Positions 46,358 through 61,600 of a stretch of DNA of 64,000 nucleotides are shown piece by piece; position 1 is the stretch's first letter; each line of letters starts with the position of its first letter. The notes below the pieces were generated by a model. The model was not told the DNA's origin, did no database searches, and saw nothing but the letters and a program-made list of their open reading frames with translations. Source of the stretch: Candidatus Omnitrophica bacterium UBA6215 (lineage in GTDB: Bacteria; Omnitrophota; Gorgyraeia; Pluralincolimonadales; Pluralincolimonadaceae); contig DISH01000003.1 of assembly GCA_002421665.1 (NCBI GenBank), forward strand, positions 39,291 through 103,290, written 5' to 3'. A program made the position numbers and the translations under genes.

Positions 46358-49300
46358 ATGAAAACTTGCGGTATCTGCGTCGGGGCATCCAACCTGACGT
46401 CGGTGGAGTTGCACAAGGACAAGGAAGGCCTGCGTGTCGGCAGGGTTATTAGTTTGCCGCACGAGGGAAATATATTCGGCTCGCTGGAACAGGCCGTGCG
46501 CAGGGCGCAGGAGGATGGCTACGGGAGTATCGCCGTGACCGGGCGCAAGGTAGGCGCCTCAATCTCGCTGCCGAGATTATCGGAACCGGAAGCGGTAGAG
46601 GAGGCCCTCAAGTTCCTGAACGCCGGTAACAGGAAAAGATACGATGCGGTAGTGAGCGTCGGCGCGGAACTTTTCATAGCTTATCTGCTGGACAGGGAGG
46701 GCAATATCTCCGGGGTCAGGACGCTTAACAAATGCGCGTCCGGGACCGGGGAATTCTTCATGCAGCAGCTCAGGAGGATGAATATATCCCTGGACGATGT
46801 CGTCAAGCTCGCCTCGTCAGAAAAATCATACAGGCTTTCGAGCAGGTGCTCGGTCTTTTGTAAAAGCGACTGTACCCACGCCCTTAACAAGGGCCAGGAT
46901 ATAAGCGAGATTCTTTCCGGTCTCTGCGAAATGATGTCCAGAAAGGTCATGGAACTTCTGGTCAACCTCCCAAAAGAGAATGTCATGCTCATAGGAGGGG
47001 TTGCCCTTAACCCCCGTGTGGTTAATTTTCTCAGGAAGGACATCCGTTCCGTACATGTCCCTAAAGAAGCCGCTTATTTCGAGGCGCTTGGCGCAGCATT
47101 GTGGGCGATGGAACATAATACCGATACGACGAACACGAAACTGCTGCAGGACAAACGCCATCCGTCGAGATTCTCGAACCTGCCTCCGCTTAAGTCCGCT
47201 CTCCCGCTGGTTGATTTCAAGGGCGCGTGGGAAAAGAAGGAATTTTCCGAAGGAGACGTATGCATAATCGGATTGGATGTGGGGTCAACGACGACGAAAG
47301 CCGTCTTGATGAGGGAGCGCGACGATGCCGTTATCGATTCTATATATCTCAGGACCAACGGCAACCCAGTTGAGGCTTCCAGGAATTGTTACAGGGCCCT
47401 GCAGAAAAATCTTAAGAAGGACGTAAAGATAACAGGCATAGGAGTCACCGGTTCAGGCAGGCATATAGCTGCCCTGCACGCCATGACGGACGGCGTGATA
47501 AATGAGATCATCGCCCACGCGCGCGCCGCGGCGTATTTCGACCCCGAGGTTGATACGATATTCGAGATAGGCGGCCAGGACGCGAAATATACGCATATAG
47601 AGAATATGGTAGCCTGCGATTACGCGATGAACGAGGCTTGTTCGGCCGGTACGGGCTCATTCCTTGAGGAGTCATGCAAAGAGACCCTCGGGGTGGAATT
47701 AAAAGACATTGAACCTCAGGCGATGAAAGGCGAGAACCCGCCCAACTTCAATGACCAGTGCGCCGCTTTTATAAGCAGCGATATCAAGACCGCCTCATAC
47801 GAGGGGCTCAAGAAAGAGGATATCGTCGCCGGGCTCGTATATTCCATCTGCATGAACTACAGTAACCGCGTAAAAGGAAACAGGCTTGTAGGCGACAAAG
47901 TGTTGATGCAAGGCGGGGTCTGCTACAACAAGGCGGTTCCCTTTGCTATGGCTTCTCTCTTGGGGAAAAAGATAGTGGTTCCTCCGGAGCCCGGCCTCAT
48001 GGGGGCCTTCGGCGTAGCGCTTGAGGTCAAGGACAAGATAAAGAACGGCCTGCTCAAAAGAGGCGAATACCGGCTTGCCGATCTTATAGGGAGAGAAGTT
48101 AAATACTGTGACAGCTTCAGGTGTAAGGGCGGCGCCGAGAAATGCGATCGGGGGTGCAGTATCCTGCGCATAGAGATAGAGGGTAAGATATATCTTTTCG
48201 GAGGTTCATGCAACAGGTATTACAATATCAACCATTCGGTAGCGGTAGAGGACGGCTTGCTAAATCTTGTCAAAGTGCGCCAAGAACAGCTTTTTAACGT
48301 GGGAGGGGCGCCGGTACCGCGTCCGGGCGCCAAGAGCGTAGGTATCAGCAAATCGTTCCTGTCGCATACTTTCTTCCCGCTGTACCACGATTTCTTCTCG
48401 GCCCTTGGGATGAAGGTCGTGGTTTCCGATACCGTTACGGATTACGGCATTCAGCACAAAAGGGCGGCTTTTTGTTACCCGGCCGAAATAGCCCACGGAA
48501 TGTTCCACAACCTCATCGAGAAAGAGCTTGATTATATATTCCTGCCCCAGGTGCTTGAGATAAAATCCAAGAGGGCGCCGCAGTCAAGGAAAGAACAGCA
48601 GTCCACGTGCGTCATCCTGCAAAGCGAGCCGTATTACCTGCGCGATACGTTCAAGAAAGCGAATAAAGGAAAGCTACTGATACCGGTGGTTGATTTTTCA
48701 AATGGTATACGGAAGGCTCAGGATACTTTTGTCGAGATGGCCGTAAAAATGAGTTTCAACGGCGGGGACGCGGCAACGGCTTACAAGGCCGCGTGCAGGA
48801 AACAGGAGGATTTTACCTCCAGGATGAAACAATACGGCAGGGGATGTCTCGAAGAACTCAGAAAGGACCCGTCAAGGACAGCGGTAGTCCTCCTGGGCAG
48901 GCCGTATAACAGTTTCGCGGCCGAAGCGAACATGGCGATACCGGACAAGTTTTCTTCCCGCGGGGTTACCATAATACCGTTTGACTGCCTTCCTTATGAA
49001 GGCGAATCCGATGACAGGAACATGTATTGGGCGAGCGGCCAGATGATACTTAAGGCCGCGAGGTTCGTAAAGAAGCACCCGCAGCTATACGCCGTTTTCG
49101 TTACTAATTTCAGTTGCGGCCCGGATTCCTTTATCGTGGGACAGGTAAGGGATATGATGGACGAAAAACCAATGCTTATCCTCGAGATAGACAGCCATAC
49201 CGCGGATGCCGGGGTCAATACCAGGATAGAAGCGTTCCTCGATATTGTGGAAAGGTCGAGGCGGGTGGCAGGCATCCCGCAAAAAGCCGCGACGCATTTC

Positions 49301-50644
49301 ATTCCGGCGCGCTGCATAAGCCACAAGAAGAGGTTATGGATAATCTCCTCCGAAGGGGAACGGCTTAAGATAAACGATAAGAAGGTCAAATTATTGATAC
49401 CTCCTATGGGCAAGATGGGCCCGGAAGCGCTCGCGGCGGTCTTTAAGACCGCGGGGATAAACGCGGTGCCGCTCGAGCCGTCGGACGGTGTATCCCTTAA
49501 GCACGGCAGGTCGAATACGACCTGTAAGGAATGCCTGCCGCTCATACTCAGCACGGGGAGCCTTATGAAGTACCTTGAGCGGGACAAGAGCGGGGACGTC
49601 CTTGTGTATTTCATGCCTTCTACCGGAGGCAATTGCAGGTTCGGACAGTATAGCGTATTCTTCAATAATCTAATCAGGAAGAAGCGCATCAGGAACCTCG
49701 CCGTATATTCAATGGATACCCAGAACAGCTACCTGGGCATGGGGAACGCTTTTAATATACTGGTCCTGAAGACCGCGCTTATATACGACGCGATGTATGA
49801 CATAAAGAACGCCTTGAAAGCGCTGGCGAAGGACCGTCAGGAGGCCCTTGGAATATTCGAGGAAGAATGGCATTCCATACTCGCGTGCATAGCCGGCGGG
49901 GGCAAAGGGCTTTACCGGGTGCTCGGCAAGTCCATGGACAGGCTCAGGAATGTGCCTTTAAAGAGGGCGTTCGCCGAGGCGAATAAGGTAGCCATAATGG
50001 GCGAGATATACGTCAGGCGCGATGATTATTGCTGCAATCCGCTTATCGACAGGCTCGCCCAGAAAGAGATAGTGGCCAAGACCGCGCCTATGCTCGAATG
50101 GTTCTATTATGTCGACTACCTCGTCAAGAACAACCTTGTCGAGGCGGATCTGGGAGTATCGGGCAGGGTCGAGTTCTTCATAAAGACGTTTTTGCAGAGC
50201 AGTTATGAGAGGAAGATAAAGGGCATATTGGAGCGTTCCGGGCTTTATGAGAACGAAGAGATAAACATCAGAAAGATCATGGATACCGGAAAAAAGTTTT
50301 TTGACGAGCAGCTTACCGGCGAGTCGATAGTAGTCGTGGGTTCTGCGATGAACGAGATAGCCGAGCATGTCTCAGGGGTTATAAACGTGGGCCCGTTCGC
50401 GTGCCTACCTACCAGGATAATAGAATCCATACTAAACGGTAATATGAATATGGCTTCCAAGAGGAGGTTGTCCGGGAAGGATCTTGAGCACCTTAAGGGG
50501 ACGGAGGACCTTCCTTTTCTTTCGGTCGAGATTGACGGGGCGCCCTTCCCGCCGCTGATCGAGGCCAAGATAGAGGCCTTTTGCCTGCAGAGCAAGCGCC
50601 TTCATGCCAAAATGTCTTATCTTAATTTACGCCATAAAAAATAA
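46358..50644 (+). CDS. 1428-aa fusion of two tandem BadF/BadG/BcrA/HgdC-type activase ATPase domains with a 2-hydroxyacyl-CoA dehydratase (HgdAB/DUF2229)-like C-terminal region. It is a candidate fused plasmalogen-synthase-like (PlsA/PlsR family) enzyme.
   Basis: Two actin-fold activase signatures ('CGICVGASNLTS' and 'CIIGLDVGSTTTKAVL...IFEIGGQDAKY'). A Cys cluster 'CDSFRCKGGAEKCDRGC' is present. The long C-terminal region has HAD-component-like blocks ('LEIDSHTADAGVNTRIEAF'). Confidence 0.7.
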   Translation: MKTCGICVGASNLTSVELHKDKEGLRVGRVISLPHEGNIFGSLEQAVRRAQEDGYGSIAVTGRKVGASISLPRLSEPEAVEEALKFLNAGNRKRYDAVVSVGAELFIAYLLDREGNISGVRTLNKCASGTGEFFMQQLRRMNISLDDVVKLASSEKSYRLSSRCSVFCKSDCTHALNKGQDISEILSGLCEMMSRKVMELLVNLPKENVMLIGGVALNPRVVNFLRKDIRSVHVPKEAAYFEALGAALWAMEHNTDTTNTKLLQDKRHPSRFSNLPPLKSALPLVDFKGAWEKKEFSEGDVCIIGLDVGSTTTKAVLMRERDDAVIDSIYLRTNGNPVEASRNCYRALQKNLKKDVKITGIGVTGSGRHIAALHAMTDGVINEIIAHARAAAYFDPEVDTIFEIGGQDAKYTHIENMVACDYAMNEACSAGTGSFLEESCKETLGVELKDIEPQAMKGENPPNFNDQCAAFISSDIKTASYEGLKKEDIVAGLVYSICMNYSNRVKGNRLVGDKVLMQGGVCYNKAVPFAMASLLGKKIVVPPEPGLMGAFGVALEVKDKIKNGLLKRGEYRLADLIGREVKYCDSFRCKGGAEKCDRGCSILRIEIEGKIYLFGGSCNRYYNINHSVAVEDGLLNLVKVRQEQLFNVGGAPVPRPGAKSVGISKSFLSHTFFPLYHDFFSALGMKVVVSDTVTDYGIQHKRAAFCYPAEIAHGMFHNLIEKELDYIFLPQVLEIKSKRAPQSRKEQQSTCVILQSEPYYLRDTFKKANKGKLLIPVVDFSNGIRKAQDTFVEMAVKMSFNGGDAATAYKAACRKQEDFTSRMKQYGRGCLEELRKDPSRTAVVLLGRPYNSFAAEANMAIPDKFSSRGVTIIPFDCLPYEGESDDRNMYWASGQMILKAARFVKKHPQLYAVFVTNFSCGPDSFIVGQVRDMMDEKPMLILEIDSHTADAGVNTRIEAFLDIVERSRRVAGIPQKAATHFIPARCISHKKRLWIISSEGERLKINDKKVKLLIPPMGKMGPEALAAVFKTAGINAVPLEPSDGVSLKHGRSNTTCKECLPLILSTGSLMKYLERDKSGDVLVYFMPSTGGNCRFGQYSVFFNNLIRKKRIRNLAVYSMDTQNSYLGMGNAFNILVLKTALIYDAMYDIKNALKALAKDRQEALGIFEEEWHSILACIAGGGKGLYRVLGKSMDRLRNVPLKRAFAEANKVAIMGEIYVRRDDYCCNPLIDRLAQKEIVAKTAPMLEWFYYVDYLVKNNLVEADLGVSGRVEFFIKTFLQSSYERKIKGILERSGLYENEEINIRKIMDTGKKFFDEQLTGESIVVVGSAMNEIAEHVSGVINVGPFACLPTRIIESILNGNMNMASKRRLSGKDLEHLKGTEDLPFLSVEIDGAPFPPLIEAKIEAFCLQSKRLHAKMSYLNLRHKK

Positions 50645-55189: not shown

Positions 55190-55284
55190 AATTCCGTCGA
55201 TATATGGCATACTTTAATTGACCGAAAGGGGCAGTCCGGCCGGCGGTCGGACTTGACGCTGGGTCCGAAAATCCCAAAGCGGGC

Positions 55285-55385
55285 CCACCCCCATCAGGGC
55301 CGAAAGGGCGTGACGCAAAACCCCGGGCCTAAACCGAGGCCATTCCAGGTGGCACGGCAGGGCGGCGAGGTTACCGAAACCGGAG
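55285..55385 (+). ncRNA. Candidate cyclic-di-GMP-I (GEMM) riboswitch aptamer.
   Basis: GC-rich non-coding leader with GEMM-like blocks: 'CAGGGCC-GAAA-GGGCGUGACGCAAAACC' (P2 with GNRA loop), 'CCGGGCCUAAACC', and '...GGCGGCGAGGUUACCGA'. These match the Vc2-type consensus (GACGCAAAGCC / GGCCUAAACC / GGGGUUACCGA). Confidence 0.55.
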
Positions 55386-55461
55386 AAAAGGTCAAAGGCG
55401 TAGGTTGCCTCCCTTTGTCGGTCGATGCAGGATTTCCGGTTGCAGTAGAAGCAGGAGGTTC

Positions 55462-55500
55462 AAAATGGCAAGCGCCATTGCGCTTGCCATTTTGTTTTCC
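55462..55500 (+). terminator. Intrinsic terminator, the likely riboswitch expression platform, 20 nt upstream of the patatin gene start.
   Basis: Perfect 14-bp hairpin AAAATGGCAAGCGC-catt-GCGCTTGCCATTTT, followed by GTTTTCC. Confidence 0.65.
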
Positions 55501-55519
55501 AGCCTATATAATAAAAGAG

Positions 55520-57574
55520 ATGAGCCCTGCCAATATTAATAATTTAGATAAAGCTGCGGTCATAAAGAAAATACCGCTGTTCGCCGACCTGCCGCAGGCC
55601 GCGCAAAAACTCATTGAGGAGCGCTGCTACCTGGTTGAGTACAGGAGAGACCACCTTCTCTACCGCGAGGGTACCCCCGCGGATTCTTTTTATTGCATGG
55701 TATCGGGCCGGGCAAAGGTGTTTGTCAATACCCCATCGGGAGAGGAGAGGGCCCTTATATATCTGCATAGGGGTGATTATGTCGGGATAGTCTCCCTGCT
55801 TACCAACGAACCCCATTCGGCCTCCGTAAGGATAATGAACGATTCGCTGGTCCTGCGCATTGACAAGAAAAATTTTGATCTATTGCTAAGCGACATTCCG
55901 CAGCTTGCCGTCAGACTCAGCGAATCGCTTTCCAGGCGTCTGAAGAAGAAAGAATCCAAGACTAAGGCGGTCTTCGAATCGACGATAATATCGGTTTACG
56001 GCATGGCTAAGAAAGCCGGCAGGACTATGTATTCTGCGAACCTGGCCATCGCCCTGGCCTACGAAACGCGCAAGAAGGTCATTTTGATAGACATGAGCCC
56101 CTCCGGAGAAGAATGCGCTTCCACGCTTCATATGGACGGGAAACCGCAGTGTATCGTCCTTGGTTCCGGCATCCTCAGCTACGATGATGTAAGGTCCAAA
56201 GTCGTAAAGTATGAGCCGGGAGGGATACACCTATTGAGCCTTTCCTGCGCTTCGTCGGCGGACATAGAGCCGTCCGAAGTGATCTCCCTGCTTAGCTCGA
56301 TAGCGTCCGAATTCAATTACATAGTCGTTGATATGCCGTCGGAGATGGATAAACCCGTTTATGCCGTGCTTATCCAATCCGACCTTATACACGTGGTGAC
56401 GGATTCCGGCGAGCATAACCTGAAGGCGACAGGGAGGATCATCGACGAATTGAAAAAGACGGTCAAGGATCCGGATAAGGTCATAAGGGCCGTAATAAAC
56501 GAATTCGTGATGACCAAGAGTTTCGAAGAGGAGGTAAAGCTGTTGGGCCATAAGGCATATGCGACCTTGCCGGACCTCGGTTTCCTTGCCGGGATGATGG
56601 CGGCAGGCCTGCCTCCGGTGCTTGCAGTGCCCGAATGCCTCTATTCGAGGGCGGTCAGGAGGATCGCCAGGGAGATAGGAAGGATACTCGTCGGCCTTTC
56701 GCTTGGTTCAGGGGCGGCGCTCGGGCTTGTCCATATCGGCGTCATCAAGGTGCTGGAAGAGGAGAAGATCCCGGTAGATTTCGTGGCAGGCAGTTCCATA
56801 GGGGCGGTCATCGGGGCGTTCTGGACTTCAGGGATGGACGCTTTAGAGATAGAAAAGGTCGCTTTGAGTTTCAAGAAAAAGAAGACGCTGTTTTCACTGG
56901 CCGATTTTTCCCTCATGCCGCTGCACGGCTTCCTGAACGGCAACGGCATCAAGCGGTTATTCAGGGAATACCTGGGCAACAAGACCTTCCATGATACGCG
57001 CATACCGTTCAAGATAGTCGCCAACACCCTGCGTTCGCGGGAGAACATCGTAATTGACCAGGGCAGCCTTGTCGACGCCTTGCGCGCGACCTGCTCGATC
57101 CCTGCGCTAATTAAACCTGTAAGGTACGGCGACGATTTCTTTATCGACGGAGGGACGCTGGACCCGGTCCCGATAGATGTCCTGGTGAAGGGCGGCGCAA
57201 GCAAGATAATAGCCGTCAACTGCCTCCCGAGCCAGGAAGAGATGCGCAAGATATTCGCCGAGTTCGAGGATAGGCGTCTCAGGGAAGAGGCCAGGCTCGC
57301 TAAGGGCTCCGTCTTCGCGCGGATAAAATATAATTTCAATAACTGGGCCCGCCGGACCTTTGCACCCAACGTTTTCGACGTCATGATGAACACCTCGCTG
57401 GCCATGCAGTATGTCCTGGCTGAGGCGTCGTCCCGTAACGCGGATTGCGTTATCCATCCGATACTGTCGAACGCGGTCTGGTTCGAGCTCTACAAAGCCG
57501 AAGAGCTCATAAAACGGGGAGAGGAAGAGACGCGGAAGATGCTTCCCCAGATAAAAGCCCTGATAGAAGAATAA
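55520..57574 (+). CDS. Cyclic-nucleotide-binding domain / degenerate MinD-ParA-like domain / patatin-like phospholipase fusion protein.
   Basis: N-terminal CAP-family cNMP-binding domain. The middle domain aligns to the MinD/CpaE P-loop region but has a deviant Walker A ('GMAKKAGRT'). The C-terminal patatin domain has a GxSxG 'GSSIGA' motif and a 'FFIDGG' DGG motif. Confidence 0.7.
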   Translation: MSPANINNLDKAAVIKKIPLFADLPQAAQKLIEERCYLVEYRRDHLLYREGTPADSFYCMVSGRAKVFVNTPSGEERALIYLHRGDYVGIVSLLTNEPHSASVRIMNDSLVLRIDKKNFDLLLSDIPQLAVRLSESLSRRLKKKESKTKAVFESTIISVYGMAKKAGRTMYSANLAIALAYETRKKVILIDMSPSGEECASTLHMDGKPQCIVLGSGILSYDDVRSKVVKYEPGGIHLLSLSCASSADIEPSEVISLLSSIASEFNYIVVDMPSEMDKPVYAVLIQSDLIHVVTDSGEHNLKATGRIIDELKKTVKDPDKVIRAVINEFVMTKSFEEEVKLLGHKAYATLPDLGFLAGMMAAGLPPVLAVPECLYSRAVRRIAREIGRILVGLSLGSGAALGLVHIGVIKVLEEEKIPVDFVAGSSIGAVIGAFWTSGMDALEIEKVALSFKKKKTLFSLADFSLMPLHGFLNGNGIKRLFREYLGNKTFHDTRIPFKIVANTLRSRENIVIDQGSLVDALRATCSIPALIKPVRYGDDFFIDGGTLDPVPIDVLVKGGASKIIAVNCLPSQEEMRKIFAEFEDRRLREEARLAKGSVFARIKYNFNNWARRTFAPNVFDVMMNTSLAMQYVLAEASSRNADCVIHPILSNAVWFELYKAEELIKRGEEETRKMLPQIKALIEE

Positions 57575-57580
57575 GCGTAT

Positions 57581-57610
57581 TTGACAGCCCTCCGGCATGG
57601 GGGCTATAAT
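57581..57610 (+). promoter_or_regulatory. Consensus sigma70 promoter (TTGACA, 18-nt spacer, TATAAT) for the fixC-like gene.
   Basis: Perfect -35 at 57581-57586 and perfect -10 at 57605-57610. The AGGAGA RBS is at 57622. Confidence 0.5.
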
Positions 57611-57633: not shown

Positions 57634-58944
57634 ATGGCAAGCGGTGAGAAATTCGATTGTATAGTCGTAGGAGCGGGCCCTGCCGGGACGACATGCGCTT
57701 ATACCCTCGCGAAAGCGGGATTGAGCGTAGTGCTTCTCGAGCGCGGGGAGAAGCCCGGGTCCAAGAACGTAATGGGAGGGATACTTTATTCCACGATACT
57801 TAATAAGGTGATACCCAACTTTTGGGAAGAGGCGCCCGTCGAGAGGAGGATAGTGCAGAAGAAGTTCTCGGTGCTTTCCGACGACTCCGAGCTCCAGCTT
57901 GCCATGAGGTTCGAGGATTTCAACAAGCCCCCCTATAACAATACTTTTTCGGTCCTGCGCGGGAAATTCGACGCATGGTATGCCTCGAAAGCCGAGGAAG
58001 CCGGGGTCATGATACTCAACGAGGCGGTTGTCGATAAGGTTATAGTCGAGAACGGCAAGGCTGTCGGCGTGAAGACCCGCCTTGAGGACGGGGACCTTTT
58101 CGCGGACACGATAGTGATAGCCGAAGGCGTCACTTCCCTGCTGGCGCAGGGCCTGGGGCTCAGGGAAAAACATATACCCGAGCACATGGTCACCTGCTGC
58201 AAGGAAGTCATCGAACTGCCGAAGGAGACGATAGAGCAAAGGTTCAACCTTGATGGCGATGAGGGCGCTTCGCTGGAGTATTTCGGGGGTTCTGTTAAGG
58301 GCCTCGTAGGATCAGCATTCATATATACTAACAAGGATACCGTATCTATAGGCGTCGGAGTATCCACGAACGATCTAAAGAACAACAAGCTTACCCCGAA
58401 TGACATAATAGAATCTTTCAAGGAGCACCCGTCGATAAAGCGCTATATAAAGGGAGGGAAGCTTCTTGAGTATTCCGCGCACATGATACCGGAATTCGGC
58501 TATGACCACCTCCCTAAATTGACCATGGACGGGCTTATCATAGCCGGCGACGCAGCAGGTTTCGTTAACATGAATCCCCTGTATCATGAAGGGTCTAACC
58601 TCGCGATGGCCTCGGGCCTTGCCGCGGCCGAAACGATAATAGAAGCAAGGAAGAACAATGATTTCTCGGAGAAAGGCCTTGCCGGATACCGCAAGCGCCT
58701 CGAAAGCTCTTTCGTCCTTAAGGACCTGAAGAGATATAAAGGTATCTCTAACTTCGCGTTGAAACATCCCGAATTTTTCAAGGAATACCCGGAACTGATC
58801 ATAGAGCTGGCGCAGGATTTCTTCACCGTTTCAGAGACGCCCAAAGGCCAGTCCAGGATGAACGTCATAAAGAAGGGCCTGAAGAGGGTCAACCTGCTCA
58901 AGCTCGCAATAGGGATGAATCGCGCGCGCAAAGTGATGTTCTAA
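57634..58944 (+). CDS. fixC: FixC-type FAD-dependent oxidoreductase (electron-transfer flavoprotein:quinone oxidoreductase family).
   Basis: 'EKFDCIVVGAGPAGTTCAYTLAKAGLSVVLLERGEKPGSKNVMGGILY' is nearly co-linear with rhizobial FixC. Length 436 aa. Confidence 0.8.
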   Translation: MASGEKFDCIVVGAGPAGTTCAYTLAKAGLSVVLLERGEKPGSKNVMGGILYSTILNKVIPNFWEEAPVERRIVQKKFSVLSDDSELQLAMRFEDFNKPPYNNTFSVLRGKFDAWYASKAEEAGVMILNEAVVDKVIVENGKAVGVKTRLEDGDLFADTIVIAEGVTSLLAQGLGLREKHIPEHMVTCCKEVIELPKETIEQRFNLDGDEGASLEYFGGSVKGLVGSAFIYTNKDTVSIGVGVSTNDLKNNKLTPNDIIESFKEHPSIKRYIKGGKLLEYSAHMIPEFGYDHLPKLTMDGLIIAGDAAGFVNMNPLYHEGSNLAMASGLAAAETIIEARKNNDFSEKGLAGYRKRLESSFVLKDLKRYKGISNFALKHPEFFKEYPELIIELAQDFFTVSETPKGQSRMNVIKKGLKRVNLLKLAIGMNRARKVMF

Positions 58945-58954
58945 GAGAGTCTCG

Positions 58955-60751
58955 ATGCGTGAAGACACTATTCCTTTGATGTTTTTCGCGAGGGCGGACA
59001 GGTATGGCAGCAGGTGCGCCCTCCGGTATAAACGCGATGGCAGATACCGCGATATAACCTGGTCGGAATTCGAGGACAAGGTAAAAGACCTCGCTTTCGG
59101 GCTTATCGCCTTGGGACTTAAACCCGGCGAAAAAGTCGCCATCCTTTCCGAGAACAGGCCGGAGTGGGCTTTCTCCGACCTGGCCGTCCTTTCATCAGGC
59201 TGTGTCGATGTCCCCATATACCCTACCGATGTCCCGAACCAGATGGCGCATATAATCTCGGATTCGGATTCAGCCATGGCTATAGTTTCGACCGCCGAAC
59301 AACTCGAAAAAGTGCTCTCCGTAAAAAAGGACATCCCTTCGCTCAGGAAAATAATAATGATGGACCCTCCGGAGAGATTGCCGGGCGCAGATATGATCTC
59401 TTTGAAAGAGGTCATGAAGACCGGGGCGGCGAAAGCTTCCGAAGTCCGCGTGGAATTCGAATCACGCCTCAGGTCGGCCGGCAAGGACGACCTGGCCTCT
59501 ATAATATATACCTCGGGCACAACAGGCCCGGCAAAAGGCGTCTGCCTTACGCACGGAAATTTCCTTTCCAACTGCAGGGTGTCGGTAGACGTTCTTCCTT
59601 TTGACGAGAAAGACGTCTGCCTTTCTTTCCTGCCGCTATCGCATGTGTTCGAAAGGATGGCCAGCTATTATTTTACGCTGCTCATCGGCGGGACGATCGC
59701 TTATGCCGGGAGCATGGAGTCGGTGGCCTCGGACCTTAAAGAGATCAGGCCCACTTACATGTGTGCTCCTCCGAGGTTCTACGAGAAACTTTACGCGGGA
59801 ATAATGGAAAAGGCCTCCGTGAAAAAACCGGGCGAAAGAAAAGCCCTCGAAAAGGCGTTCGCGACGGCCAAAAAATACTCCGACGCTATTTTCAATAAGC
59901 TGGATATAAGCCCGGGCCTTTGGCTCGAGTACAATATCGCCAGGATATGCGTATTCTCCAAGATAAAGGAGGCGGTCGGCGGAAAGATCAAATTCTTCAT
60001 CTCAGGCGGCGCTCCGCTCTCAAGGGAGCTTGCCGAGTTTTTCTTTTCGGTCGGGATATTTATATTCGAGGGCTACGGCCTTACCGAGACATCCCCGGTA
60101 GTGACGGTTAATACTTTCAAGGCCCTCAGGTTCGGCTCCGTAGGAAAACCCCTCAAGGACGTGGAGGTAAGGATGTCCTCCGACGGAGAAATATTGGTAA
60201 AAGGCCCTACGGTAATGAAGAGGTACTATAATAACGAAAAGGCCACAGCCGAGGCAATAGACGGCGAGGGCTGGTTCCATACCGGGGACGTGGGGCATTT
60301 CGACGATGACGGGTTCCTTTATATAACCGACCGCAAGAAAGACATAATAATAACCGCCGGCGGGAAGAATATAGCGCCGCTCAATATAGAGAACCTCATA
60401 AAAAGCGATTCGTACATACAGGAGATAGTGATCCATGGGGACAGGAGGCCTTACCTGACAGCGATAGTAGTCCCGGATTTTAACGCGTTGAAAGGGCTCG
60501 CGATAAGACTTGGGATACCTTACCTTAAGCCGGAGGAACTGGCAGCCCATCCGCGTGTCGAGGAGTTCATAAAGGGCAGGATAGAAGAAAAACAGAAGGC
60601 CCTGCCCGGTTATGAGAGGATAAAGAGATTCAGGCTGCTGGACAGGCCCTTGAAGATAGAGGAGGGCGAGATGACCCCGTCCCTCAAGGTAAAGCGCAAG
60701 GTTGTCGCGGAGAAATATAAGGAAGTTTTTGACGAGTTGTACAGGAGCTGA
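58955..60751 (+). CDS. Long-chain fatty acid--CoA ligase (AMP-binding, FadD-like).
   Basis: 'YTSGTTGPAKGV', 'GYGLTETS' and 'TGDVGHFDDDGFLYITDRKKD' are present. Confidence 0.8.
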   Translation: MREDTIPLMFFARADRYGSRCALRYKRDGRYRDITWSEFEDKVKDLAFGLIALGLKPGEKVAILSENRPEWAFSDLAVLSSGCVDVPIYPTDVPNQMAHIISDSDSAMAIVSTAEQLEKVLSVKKDIPSLRKIIMMDPPERLPGADMISLKEVMKTGAAKASEVRVEFESRLRSAGKDDLASIIYTSGTTGPAKGVCLTHGNFLSNCRVSVDVLPFDEKDVCLSFLPLSHVFERMASYYFTLLIGGTIAYAGSMESVASDLKEIRPTYMCAPPRFYEKLYAGIMEKASVKKPGERKALEKAFATAKKYSDAIFNKLDISPGLWLEYNIARICVFSKIKEAVGGKIKFFISGGAPLSRELAEFFFSVGIFIFEGYGLTETSPVVTVNTFKALRFGSVGKPLKDVEVRMSSDGEILVKGPTVMKRYYNNEKATAEAIDGEGWFHTGDVGHFDDDGFLYITDRKKDIIITAGGKNIAPLNIENLIKSDSYIQEIVIHGDRRPYLTAIVVPDFNALKGLAIRLGIPYLKPEELAAHPRVEEFIKGRIEEKQKALPGYERIKRFRLLDRPLKIEEGEMTPSLKVKRKVVAEKYKEVFDELYRS

Positions 60752-60760
60752 GGGCAGGAT

Positions 60761-61600
60761 TTGAGATTCGAAGGGTCTTTCAAGAACAAAGACGCCCAGA
60801 ACATAGCATATAAGGCGTTCATCCCCGCGGACCCGAAGGCAGTGCTTGTCATGGCGCATGGGCTCGGGGAGAATTTCCTTAAGTATGCGTATTTCGGCGA
60901 ACGGCTTTACGGCGCCGGTATTGCTGCTTTCCTTTATGACCAGCGGGGCCACGGGAGATCCCAGGGCAGGCGCGTATTTGCGGCCGATTTCGACGACCTC
61001 GTCTCGGACCTCAGGCAGATGATCGAGATAGCCAAGGTCGAGACGCTGCTCGAAGATGTATTTGTAGCGGGCCTGAGCATGGGCGGCCTGCTGGCGCTCG
61101 ATTATTCGATAAAATACGGCGATACGATAACGGGCGTGATCTGCAGCGCTCCCGCCGTTAAGCTTAAAAACCCTCCCGGAGGGATAGAGTACGGGGCCGC
61201 ACGGTTTATCGCGGCCTTGTTCCCCTGGCTGACGACCCCAAACAGGATACCTTATGAATGGCTTACGCATGACGCTGCGCTTATAGAAGAGACAAAAGCG
61301 GACAAGAATTCCCAGCGCGTCATATCATTCGGCTTGTTTTTGCAGATGACAAAGGCCATGAGGTTCGTCTTCGATAACGCAGGCGGGATAAAAGTCCCGC
61401 TGCTTTTCCTGCAGGGCAGCGACGACAAGGTGGTCGAAGCCGACGGCGTAAGGGAACTTTTCGAGAAAATACCGTCCATAGACAAGGAACTGAAGGTCTA
61501 TGACGGGCTTTATCATGAGCTTCTTAGGGAAACGAGCAGGGAAGAGATAGCCGGTTACATCATTGATTGGATACAAAAAAGGACAGGGGAGAGGAAATAA
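60761..61600 (+). CDS. Alpha/beta hydrolase, lysophospholipase / monoacylglycerol lipase-like.
   Basis: 'HGLGE' oxyanion region and GxSxG 'GLSMGG'. Length 279 aa with a TTG start. Confidence 0.65.
   Translation: MRFEGSFKNKDAQNIAYKAFIPADPKAVLVMAHGLGENFLKYAYFGERLYGAGIAAFLYDQRGHGRSQGRRVFAADFDDLVSDLRQMIEIAKVETLLEDVFVAGLSMGGLLALDYSIKYGDTITGVICSAPAVKLKNPPGGIEYGAARFIAALFPWLTTPNRIPYEWLTHDAALIEETKADKNSQRVISFGLFLQMTKAMRFVFDNAGGIKVPLLFLQGSDDKVVEADGVRELFEKIPSIDKELKVYDGLYHELLRETSREEIAGYIIDWIQKRTGERK

Follow-up and report, generated by a model that had tools for sequence, protein, structure and literature searches.

The patatin-fold proteins RssA/YchK (COG1752, 'NTE family') and PlpD of P. aeruginosa (5fya/5fqu) share one fold and a catalytic dyad set in G-x-S-x-G and D-G-G motifs. 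RssA is a stand-alone protein of ~300 amino acids (aa), and PlpD is the secreted passenger of a type Vd autotransporter. NTE/PNPLA6/Swiss-cheese proteins carry a cyclic-nucleotide (cNMP)-binding fold on the N-terminal side of a patatin esterase that belongs to the same subfamily. In PNPLA6, three cNMP-binding domains follow a membrane segment at the N-terminus, and a ParA-like domain is not known. A 2025 preprint reportedly treats the role of the NTE nucleotide-binding domains as unsettled. Nucleotide second messengers also control the patatins CapV and CapE of the cyclic-oligonucleotide-based anti-phage signaling system (CBASS), which bind a cyclic oligonucleotide on the lipase itself and form filaments. 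CpaE/TadZ-type proteins place a ParA fold after an N-terminal sensor-type domain of ~140 aa, and TadZ works in Tad pilus localization, not catalysis. Here we describe a gene of Candidatus Omnitrophica bacterium UBA6215 whose product combines a cNMP-binding fold, a ParA/MinD fold, and a patatin in a single polypeptide. It lies within a 64,000-nucleotide (nt) stretch of contig DISH01000003.1 (positions 39,291–103,290; hereafter the window), to which our coordinates refer. With a probability of roughly 0.55, we read the product as a regulated cytoplasmic patatin-type lipase for lipid mobilization, in which a dead ATPase serves as a scaffold.

The open reading frame (ORF) encodes 684 aa (Table 1), with a CAP-type cNMP-binding fold at aa 12–141, a ParA/MinD fold at aa 153–388, and an RssA/NTE-type patatin at aa 390–684. 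An earlier reading of this DNA made without database searches (the sequence-only reading) had proposed such a three-part architecture, and it proved to be real: hidden Markov models (HMMs), profile searches against the PDB, and AlphaFold modeling with Foldseek comparison all concur on it. The motifs on which that reading drew are also in place, with GMAKKAGRT at aa 161–169, GSSIG at aa 424–428, and DGG at aa 543–545. The full-length AlphaFold model has a mean predicted local distance difference test score (pLDDT) of 86.6 and a predicted template modeling score (pTM) of 0.73, and its only disordered stretch is the linker at aa 143–152. A hydropathy scan of the 684-aa protein detected no N-terminal signal-like hydrophobic stretch. 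The single hydropathy peak (aa 391–409, Kyte-Doolittle score 1.77 against the usual cut-off of ~1.6) was considered as a membrane segment and rejected, because it coincides with the buried first strand, loop, and helix of the modeled patatin core; no convincing membrane segment is left. Our best reading is that the protein is cytoplasmic. As the C-terminal part of a 684-aa protein predicted to be cytoplasmic, the lipase differs from both RssA and PlpD.

Among 5.8 billion proteins searched, at least 120 clusters, at 38–94% identity, have this layout too. Residue counts given below were taken over 117 full-length homologues, and those for distant members over ~50 representatives clustered at 50% identity. 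Among GTDB species genomes we examined the best 80 loci, and 87 loci in all were used for counts of gene context and riboswitches. Because the architecture is common to more than 116 full-length homologues and to the best 80 GTDB loci, all of which cover residues ~5–684, it is not a chance fusion. Named homologues are annotated as 'patatin-like phospholipase family protein' or 'NTE family protein' and come from Candidatus Omnitrophota metagenome-assembled genomes. The labels of the best 80 loci are mostly Omnitrophota/Omnitrophica, along with 'uncultured Planctomycetia' or 'Planctomycetales' in one set of third-party assemblies, one 'Patescibacteria group', two 'bacterium', and one 'uncultured bacterium'. 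The closest locus, L007, shares 94% identity. When a profile of the middle domain was searched against 1.84 billion representatives, the 56 proteins found at E ≤ 1e-30 were essentially this same family (~650–700 aa, ParA-fold domain at ~150–390). Judged by these comparisons, the three-domain lipase is a conserved protein of Omnitrophota. The sequence-only reading did not recognize the arrangement as described, and we likewise found no description in the literature searched for patatin, cNMP-binding, and ParA/MinD domains together in Omnitrophota.

The C-terminal part is a patatin by every approach used. Pfam Patatin (PF01734) matches aa 393–555 (E 2.1e-34, 119.8 bits, cut-off 27.7), and the best NCBIfam match is RssA, which aligns end to end with aa 388–682 (profile positions 3–297 of 301) and thus includes the C-terminal helical extension that the two proteins share. 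In Foldseek, this part of the model superimposes on PlpD (5fya), its closest solved structure, with a target TM-score of 0.85 (E 1.8e-18), and it also resembles CapV and CapE. The likeness to NTE/PNPLA6-like lipases suggested by the sequence-only reading did not survive at the level of architecture, since the patatin is of the complete bacterial RssA type and a ParA-fold insert is present. Relative to PNPLA6, the protein has one sensor, the pseudo-ParA insert, an altered nucleotide-binding cassette, and no convincing membrane segment.

The Ser/Asp dyad, which that reading had put forward for checking, is conserved in full: neither Ser426 nor Asp543 is missing from any of the 117 homologues or of the ~50 distant representatives. 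With this dyad and the Gly-rich oxyanion loop intact, the lipase is apparently active. Alignments show that PlpD, VipD, and ExoU carry Arg or Lys at one position of the oxyanion loop, whose canonical form is G-G-x-[RK]-G, a basic residue that the window protein lacks and that is absent from 117/117 homologues (Leu 64, Tyr 21, Met 17, Phe 11, Trp 3, Ser 1); an Arg is kept in ~10 of the 50 distant members. Its loss may hint at a shift in preference from phospholipid head groups to neutral or lyso-lipids. Lipases of the ATGL/PNPLA2 group act on neutral lipid and are not known to carry a basic residue in this loop. We treat the resemblance of the predicted loop to theirs as only a lead, since looking for the ATGL sequence 'GCGFLG' in text returned no match.

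Single-sequence matches to the middle domain are weak and become robust once a family profile is used. Pfam AAA_31 (aa 156–316, E 1.6e-6, 28.6 bits) and CbiA (aa 166–336, E 1e-5, 25.9 bits) stand just above their cut-offs (27 and 25.4), and NCBIfam gives weak matches to CpaE-homologue/Ssd, ParA, and MinD, the last at 30 bits against a cut-off of 213. The whole-family profile, searched against the PDB, finds the Chlorobium tepidum ParA-family structure 3ea0 at 1e-16 (positions 159–376), and a profile of 19 middle domains finds 3ea0 (8.4e-16), Soj (1.9e-11), and MinD (2.8e-11), as well as VpsO and FlhG. Modeled alone (aa 145–390), the domain reaches a pLDDT of 88.7 and a pTM of 0.89, and Foldseek aligns it over its whole length with 3ea0, MinD, Soj, FlhG, NifH, and BcsQ at TM-scores of 0.65–0.77. 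Profile HMMs and structure prediction, the checks named in the sequence-only reading, thereby agree on ParA-fold similarity in the middle region. Of its MinD/ParA assignment, the ParA fold stands and MinD proper does not: the closest relatives belong to another group, and a MinD-style C-terminal amphipathic membrane-targeting helix is absent from the AlphaFold model, in which the last helix of the domain (aa 374–386) runs straight into the patatin strand at aa 391–395.

These nearest relatives, besides 3ea0, are proteins of the CpaE/TadZ type. After the family itself, the next-best proteins in the middle-domain profile search are ~400 aa long and consist of Response_reg followed by AAA_31/ParA, which is the CpaE/TadZ layout. 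They retain KGGxGK[ST] and the DxD switch. Compared with them, the window protein has a cNMP fold in place of the receiver, has lost the KGG, and carries a lipase fused at its C-terminus. The middle domain probably derives from this receiver–ParA group; a cNMP-fold sensor would have taken the place of the receiver, and an RssA-type lipase would have been joined on.

The corruption of the Walker A motif noted in the window sequence extends to the entire family. The consensus across the homologues is S-x-x-[KR]-x-x-G-[R/K/other]-[TS], where the position of the P-loop Lys is Arg in 80, Lys in 26, and another residue in 11, and the signature Lys and the GG of KGG are gone in every family member. 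Elsewhere in the domain more is kept. The Walker B residue Asp271 is invariant; N174, D191, P273, and D277 are each found in 105–116 of 117; and in switch I the first Asp (D191) is retained in 105/117 while the second Asp of DxD is replaced. In the distant full-length representatives, the P-loop is often unrecognizable (SEDALLDQQ, NFYREDQAE, LHNEPEHTA). A scrambled loop in members whose fold is otherwise conserved means that the function common to the family cannot be nucleotide binding. The middle domain is a predicted pseudo-ATPase family-wide.

We find a comparable departure from canonical residues in the N-terminal domain. Its fold is well supported, with Pfam cNMP_binding (PF00027) matching aa 39–123 (E 1.9e-20, 73.1 bits, cut-off 27.5) and Foldseek pairing the N-terminus of the full model with the cNMP-binding domains of CRP, GlxR, and PKA-R. 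In alignments to PKG cassettes, however, Ile90 falls under the canonical Glu that contacts the ribose 2′-OH and His99 under the canonical Arg that contacts the phosphate. The Arg position is His in 117/117 homologues and in ~46 of 50 distant representatives; the Glu position is Glu in only 1/117 and Ile, Thr, or Met in this clade. The cassette consensus is G-D-Y-F-G-[ITM]-I-S-L-L-T-x-E-P-H-S-[VA]-[TS], and one distant member (P0241) retains a canonical FGE..PRSATV cassette. The sequence-only reading was therefore right about a CAP-type domain as far as the fold goes, but the Arg and Glu of canonical cyclic AMP or cyclic GMP (cAMP/cGMP) binding are missing. Because both ligand-contacting residues are replaced, an NTE-like regulation by cAMP or cGMP is doubtful. 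From the strict conservation of the His cassette, we infer that the domain has a real ligand, bound unlike cAMP or cGMP.

The 330-nt gap before the lipase gene looked structured. A permissive Rfam search of this intergenic region matched the cyclic di-GMP (c-di-GMP)-I riboswitch, GEMM-I (RF01051), at 55288–55378 with the full model (28.2 bits, E 0.0012); at the gathering threshold, Rfam found no match in the whole window. The low score is explained by a ~60-nt insertion in helix P2 of the window copy, which typical RF01051 members do not have. Upstream elements of homologues do pass the gathering threshold (66.6 bits in L012, 61.4 in L003, 56.6 in L011, 40.4 in L017, and 35.0 in L009). We built a covariance model (R1) from an alignment of 15 copies, with which the window copy, itself part of the R1 seed, scores 74.1 bits. 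Across all 87 sources (1.22 Mb), R1 gave 33 matches, 27 of them on the strand of the lipase gene and no more than 2 kb upstream of it (27 of 87 loci, window included). Twelve stand 114–280 nt from the ATG, one at ~750 nt, and fourteen at ~1.3–1.8 kb; these fourteen precede a GH1 glycosidase gene in another clade of the family, described below. A sequence-only nhmmer search recovered the same set.

The alignment supports a c-di-GMP-I fold. In the core helices 91.5% of cells are paired, against 25–48% in slid controls, and 10 of 18 pairs show compensatory change. Positions 20, 47, and 92, which we take to be those contacting c-di-GMP in the Vc2 structure, are G, A, and C in 28/28 copies; the variant selective for cyclic GMP-AMP presumably carries A20. 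Since every copy has G/A/C at the three contact positions, the predicted ligand is c-di-GMP. The window copy thus shares with RF01051 its core helices and specificity residues, and a hairpin resembling an intrinsic terminator follows. The P2 insertion (55240–55305 in the window, 4273–4338 in L007) forms hairpins of UGGGUCC/GGGCCCA in the window, UGGAUCC/GGAUCCA in L007, and UCGGUGCG/CGCACCGA in L008, and L009 has an equivalent region. These compensatory changes between close relatives indicate that the insertion is itself under structural selection. No association of c-di-GMP-I with Omnitrophica or with a patatin gene was found in the literature searched.

Further GEMM-I copies adjoin other genes in the flanks of the loci, at L084 17647–17729, L078 13828–13906, L082 15329–15410, L019 15606–15679, L058 17882–17970, and L042 5097–5180, so that c-di-GMP riboswitches seem common in related genomes. 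A gene for a PilZ domain, a c-di-GMP receptor family, lies at L003 16501–16974, a few kilobases downstream of the lipase and its beta-oxidation cluster. No ORF with a GGDEF motif was found in the window, which gives no local evidence of c-di-GMP synthesis.

The leader between aptamer and start codon contains an apparent expression platform and, beyond it, a second promoter. Upstream of the aptamer, the boxes of promoter-like P1 have TTGAAA...TATACT equivalents in related loci. The outer closing helix P0, not typical of RF01051, lies over the binding core; its GCCGATAAAGG / CCTTTATCGGC complementarity recurs in other loci, and in the modeled folds it would sequester the ligand-binding core as part of the expression platform. 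The terminator-like hairpin was not flagged by a simple terminator scan. It forms in every RNAfold fold of full and partial leaders, and in other loci, too, a terminator made up of a stem-loop plus a T-run comes after the aptamer. The -10 box of promoter-like P2 ends 8 nt before ATG 55520, with no Shine-Dalgarno sequence between them, a placement that also sets this leader apart from typical RF01051 members. A TATAAT or TATCAT box 6–12 nt before the first downstream ATG recurs in 16 of 26 related riboswitch-bearing loci, in addition to the window; loci with a P2-like promoter include L030, L047, L071, L001, L008, L009, and L011. Elsewhere in the window, the -10 boxes of genes stand at ordinary distances. 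The proximity of the P2 -10 box to an ATG lacking a Shine-Dalgarno sequence suggests that a leaderless mRNA starts from a promoter directly after the terminator. The output of the riboswitch would then be unusual: it might add leadered read-through transcripts, occlude P2, or give a stand-alone RNA.

The choice of start codon bears on how this leader is read. The lipase frame stays open upstream of ATG 55520, and a TTG at 55253 would give a protein of 773 aa; the database gene call of a 94%-identical homologue (P0001, 773 aa) uses the equivalent start. We rejected it and took ATG 55520 as the start, because the longer frame would translate the aptamer and the terminator and because homologues begin at the equivalent of 55520. 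The TTG start is almost certainly mis-called, so that the predicted protein of P0001 wrongly takes in riboswitch and terminator. A 24-codon ORF (MASAIALAILFSSLYNKRDEPCQY, window 55453–55539, + strand) was also considered. An AGGAGG lies 7 nt before its ATG at 55465, inside the terminator stem. This ORF, which runs into the lipase start in a different frame, shows no conservation in L008 or L009 and was set aside as probably fortuitous.

Genes for fatty-acid activation or beta-oxidation adjoin the lipase gene, always co-directionally, in ~30 of 87 loci, the window included. Neither these neighbors nor the riboswitch figured in the sequence-only reading. Downstream of the lipase, the window encodes a FixC/ETF-QO-like protein, a FadD-type ligase, a Hydrolase_4 protein, an M23 peptidase, and PCMT; upstream are a CoA-enzyme-activase fusion, MazG (on the opposite strand), a TPR-peptidase, Era, and a TPR protein. 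The Hydrolase_4 protein is presumably monoacylglycerol-lipase-like, going by what that Pfam family contains. Other contigs have different arrangements, with 3HCDH, ECH, acyl-CoA ligase, and Hydrolase_4 downstream in one example and acyl-CoA ligase, thiolase, ECH/3HCDH, and acyl-CoA dehydrogenase directly upstream in another. The link to fatty-acid catabolism is good for the clade of the window and is not general. Upstream in the window (46358–50644, + strand) is a gene for a 1428-aa fusion of two BcrAD_BadFG (acyl-CoA dehydratase activase-type) ATPase modules and DUF2229, which is conserved upstream in L001, L008, and L009.

Table 1. Features of the lipase locus, in window coordinates
Feature	Position	Strand	Size or residues	Basis or remarks
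Riboswitch promoter-like P1	55186..55213	+		TTGAAA-16-CATACT, TG before -10; ~8 nt before riboswitch 5′ end
c-di-GMP-I (GEMM-I) aptamer	55222..55378	+		Structured ~60-nt insertion in helix P2; G20/A47/C92
3′ strand of long closing helix P0	55411..55426	+		RNAfold minimum-energy structure; pairs with 55217-55231, including aptamer core G19-G21
Terminator-like hairpin	55461..55499	+	13-15 bp stem	Sequence, RNAfold; AAAATGGCAAGCG / CGCTTGCCATTTT, then TTTTGTTTT
Promoter-like P2	55484..55512	+		TTGCCA-17-TATAAT, 11/12; overlaps terminator 3′ strand
ORF: cNMP-binding-like sensor, predicted pseudo-ParA domain, patatin lipase	55520..57574	+	684 aa
CAP/CRP-type cNMP-binding fold, including C-helix	55553..55942	+	aa 12-141	Pfam PF00027, Foldseek, PDB sequence matches
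Non-canonical phosphate-binding cassette	55772..55825	+		GDYVGIVSLLTNEPHSAS; Ile90 at Glu position, His99 at Arg position
ParA/MinD-fold domain, predicted pseudo-ATPase	55976..56683	+	aa 153-388	Closest to CpaE/TadZ-like proteins
Degenerate P-loop	56000..56026	+	aa 161-169	GMAKKAGRT (canonical xKGGxGK[ST])
Patatin core	56687..57217	+	aa 390-566	Gly-rich loop GSGAALG; Ser426 in GSSIG (56789-56803); Asp543 in DGG (57146-57154)
C-terminal helical region common to RssA-type patatins	57218..57571	+	aa 567-684	NCBIfam RssA, helices in model
FixC/ETF-QO-like FAD-dependent oxidoreductase	57634..58944	+
FadD-type fatty-acid–CoA ligase	58955..60751	+	598 aa	Orthologue adjoins lipase in 19 loci
Alpha/beta hydrolase, Hydrolase_4	60761..61600	+		Weak lysophospholipase L2 match; present in 16 loci

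Several observations weigh against our reading of a regulated lipase for lipid mobilization. The beta-oxidation neighborhood is found in only about a third of loci. In a larger clade at 36–39% identity (L005, L024, L025, L030, L033, and ~40 others), the lipase gene sits between a GH1 glycosidase gene, which ends ~13 nt before it (43 loci), and a closely following gene for a conserved 153-aa protein that has no match in Pfam (40 loci); a ~103-aa MazG-like protein and then an SNF-family transporter are also encoded after the lipase in this clade. In the window, the FixC-like gene has a perfect 12/12 promoter of its own (TTGACA-18-TATAAT, 57581–57610, + strand) 24 nt before it, along with an AGGAG box, so that the downstream genes may be transcribed as a unit of their own and not in an operon with the lipase. 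With regard to expression, the window aptamer scores below the RF01051 gathering score of 35, an antiterminator is not evident in RNAfold folds of full and partial leaders, and the near-consensus P2 between terminator and ATG calls riboswitch control of this ORF into question. With G167, [RK]168, T169, D191, and D271 conserved, the window's clade may retain some nucleotide binding. Finally, substrate, oligomeric state, and ligand are all inferred for every member of the family.

The conserved residues of the middle domain are the basis of a tentative, less likely alternative, in which the Arg-for-Lys P-loop binds ATP or another phosphorylated ligand without hydrolyzing it, and a nucleotide-dependent sandwich dimer couples the lipase to energy state. 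Such a nucleotide switch would account for an invariant G167, for [RK]168 in 106/117 and [TS]169 in 117/117 homologues, and for the conservation of D191 and the Walker B residue D271 among close homologues; P-loop variants such as GRT, GAT, GTT, and GCT occur among CpaE-like relatives as well, and the closest solved structure, 3ea0, reads GGS at this position in our alignments. It has to contend with the loss of the signature Lys and both Gly of KGG in all members, the loss of the second Asp of the DxD switch, and the many full-length members whose scrambled loop contains no Gly, Lys/Arg, or Thr while fold and lipase are conserved. The sensor raises a further question, namely whether cAMP or cGMP simply activates an NTE/PNPLA6-like phospholipase, with the middle domain as a spacer. 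Strong cNMP_binding HMM and fold matches speak for this, homologues are labeled 'NTE family protein' by their sources, and the canonical cassette of P0241 implies that the ancestor probably bound a cyclic nucleotide. We nonetheless think it quite unlikely given the replacement of the phosphate-contacting Arg throughout the homologues and of the ribose-contacting Glu in this clade, the presence of one sensor domain and no membrane segment where PNPLA6 has three and an N-terminal one, and a middle domain that is a complete, confidently folded ParA fold and not a linker.

Gene context bears on the remaining explanations. A housekeeping role in membrane-lipid remodeling, like that of RssA/YchK, would make the neighboring beta-oxidation genes and riboswitch incidental. 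That the best NCBIfam match over the whole C-terminal half is RssA, that about two thirds of loci have no beta-oxidation neighbors, and that the downstream gene has its own promoter are all as this explanation would have it. Co-directional adjacency to beta-oxidation or acyl-CoA ligase genes recurs, however, at ~40% protein identity and in different gene orders, and the 27 of 33 riboswitch matches fall within ~7% of the strand-specific sequence searched, which is far from random; we consider incidental adjacency unlikely. An anti-phage effector of the CBASS or Pycsar kind, a cyclic-nucleotide-sensing patatin that destroys membranes upon a cyclase signal, appears highly improbable. PADLOC reports domain-level matches to a Pycsar effector sensor domain (6.1e-13) and to phospholipase effectors (1.7e-5), and the lipase is structurally similar to CapV and CapE. 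Yet these PADLOC matches are to single domains with no system, the defense-operon setting of CapV and CapE with its CD-NTase is not present at this locus, a cyclase or CD-NTase stands beside the gene in 0/7 annotated contexts, and the synteny with era and metabolic genes is stable across the best 80 species-level genomes, unlike that of defense islands.

Under our preferred explanation of a regulated lipase built on a dead-ATPase scaffold, the enzyme would release fatty acids from cellular or acquired acyl-lipids, which would then be activated and enter beta-oxidation. The sensor and pseudo-ATPase would work as a pair, as the receiver and atypical ATPase of CpaE/TadZ do, with the sensor binding something other than cAMP or cGMP in the canonical mode. 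The dead ATPase would form an ATP-independent, probably dimeric scaffold that couples the lipase to the state of the sensor, for instance by ordering the Asp-bearing segment. Patatin enzymes need protein-protein contact or dimerization to order the catalytic Asp segment (PMC12871566), a general requirement with which the proposed dimeric scaffold fits. Cellular c-di-GMP would set the expression of the lipase via the riboswitch.

A more elaborate version is speculative, and we would not rate it as likely. It takes the protein as an unrecognized signaling lipase in which a re-tuned sensor switches a dead-ATPase transducer, and in which riboswitch and leaderless promoter together make up a two-tier, c-di-GMP-controlled switch for lipid mobilization. 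The sensor ligand could conceivably be a lipid-derived or nucleotide metabolite, or c-di-GMP itself; different states of the pseudo-ATPase scaffold would order or disorder the lipase active site; and the output of the riboswitch would be read-through of the terminator across the downstream leaderless promoter. Omnitrophota have been described as host-dependent or predatory nanobacteria. If true, the two-tier switch could mean use of host or prey lipids in this phylum.

The superfamily of each domain was already known, as was the pairing of a cNMP fold with a patatin in NTE. The P-loop-less ParA insertion, the re-tuned cassette, the phylum-wide spread, and the link to a c-di-GMP riboswitch are new, in that none was found in the literature searched. 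Two features of the locus also bear on annotation. The label 'cNMP-binding' can mislead, as the conserved replacement of Arg by His in the cassette points to a sensor whose ligand is probably a different one. The riboswitch escaped notice at the thresholds of Rfam and was absorbed by an over-extended ORF in one or more database gene calls.

Together, these findings add a clear, phylum-wide case of a predicted pseudo-enzyme domain, in which a P-loop-less ParA/MinD fold has been retained within an apparently active enzyme as a module for structure or regulation. Regulation of this kind would be new for patatin lipases, which in general need partner contacts to become active. Furthermore, the locus would tie c-di-GMP signaling to lipid catabolism in Omnitrophota, a testable link in an uncultivated phylum whose physiology is largely inferred.

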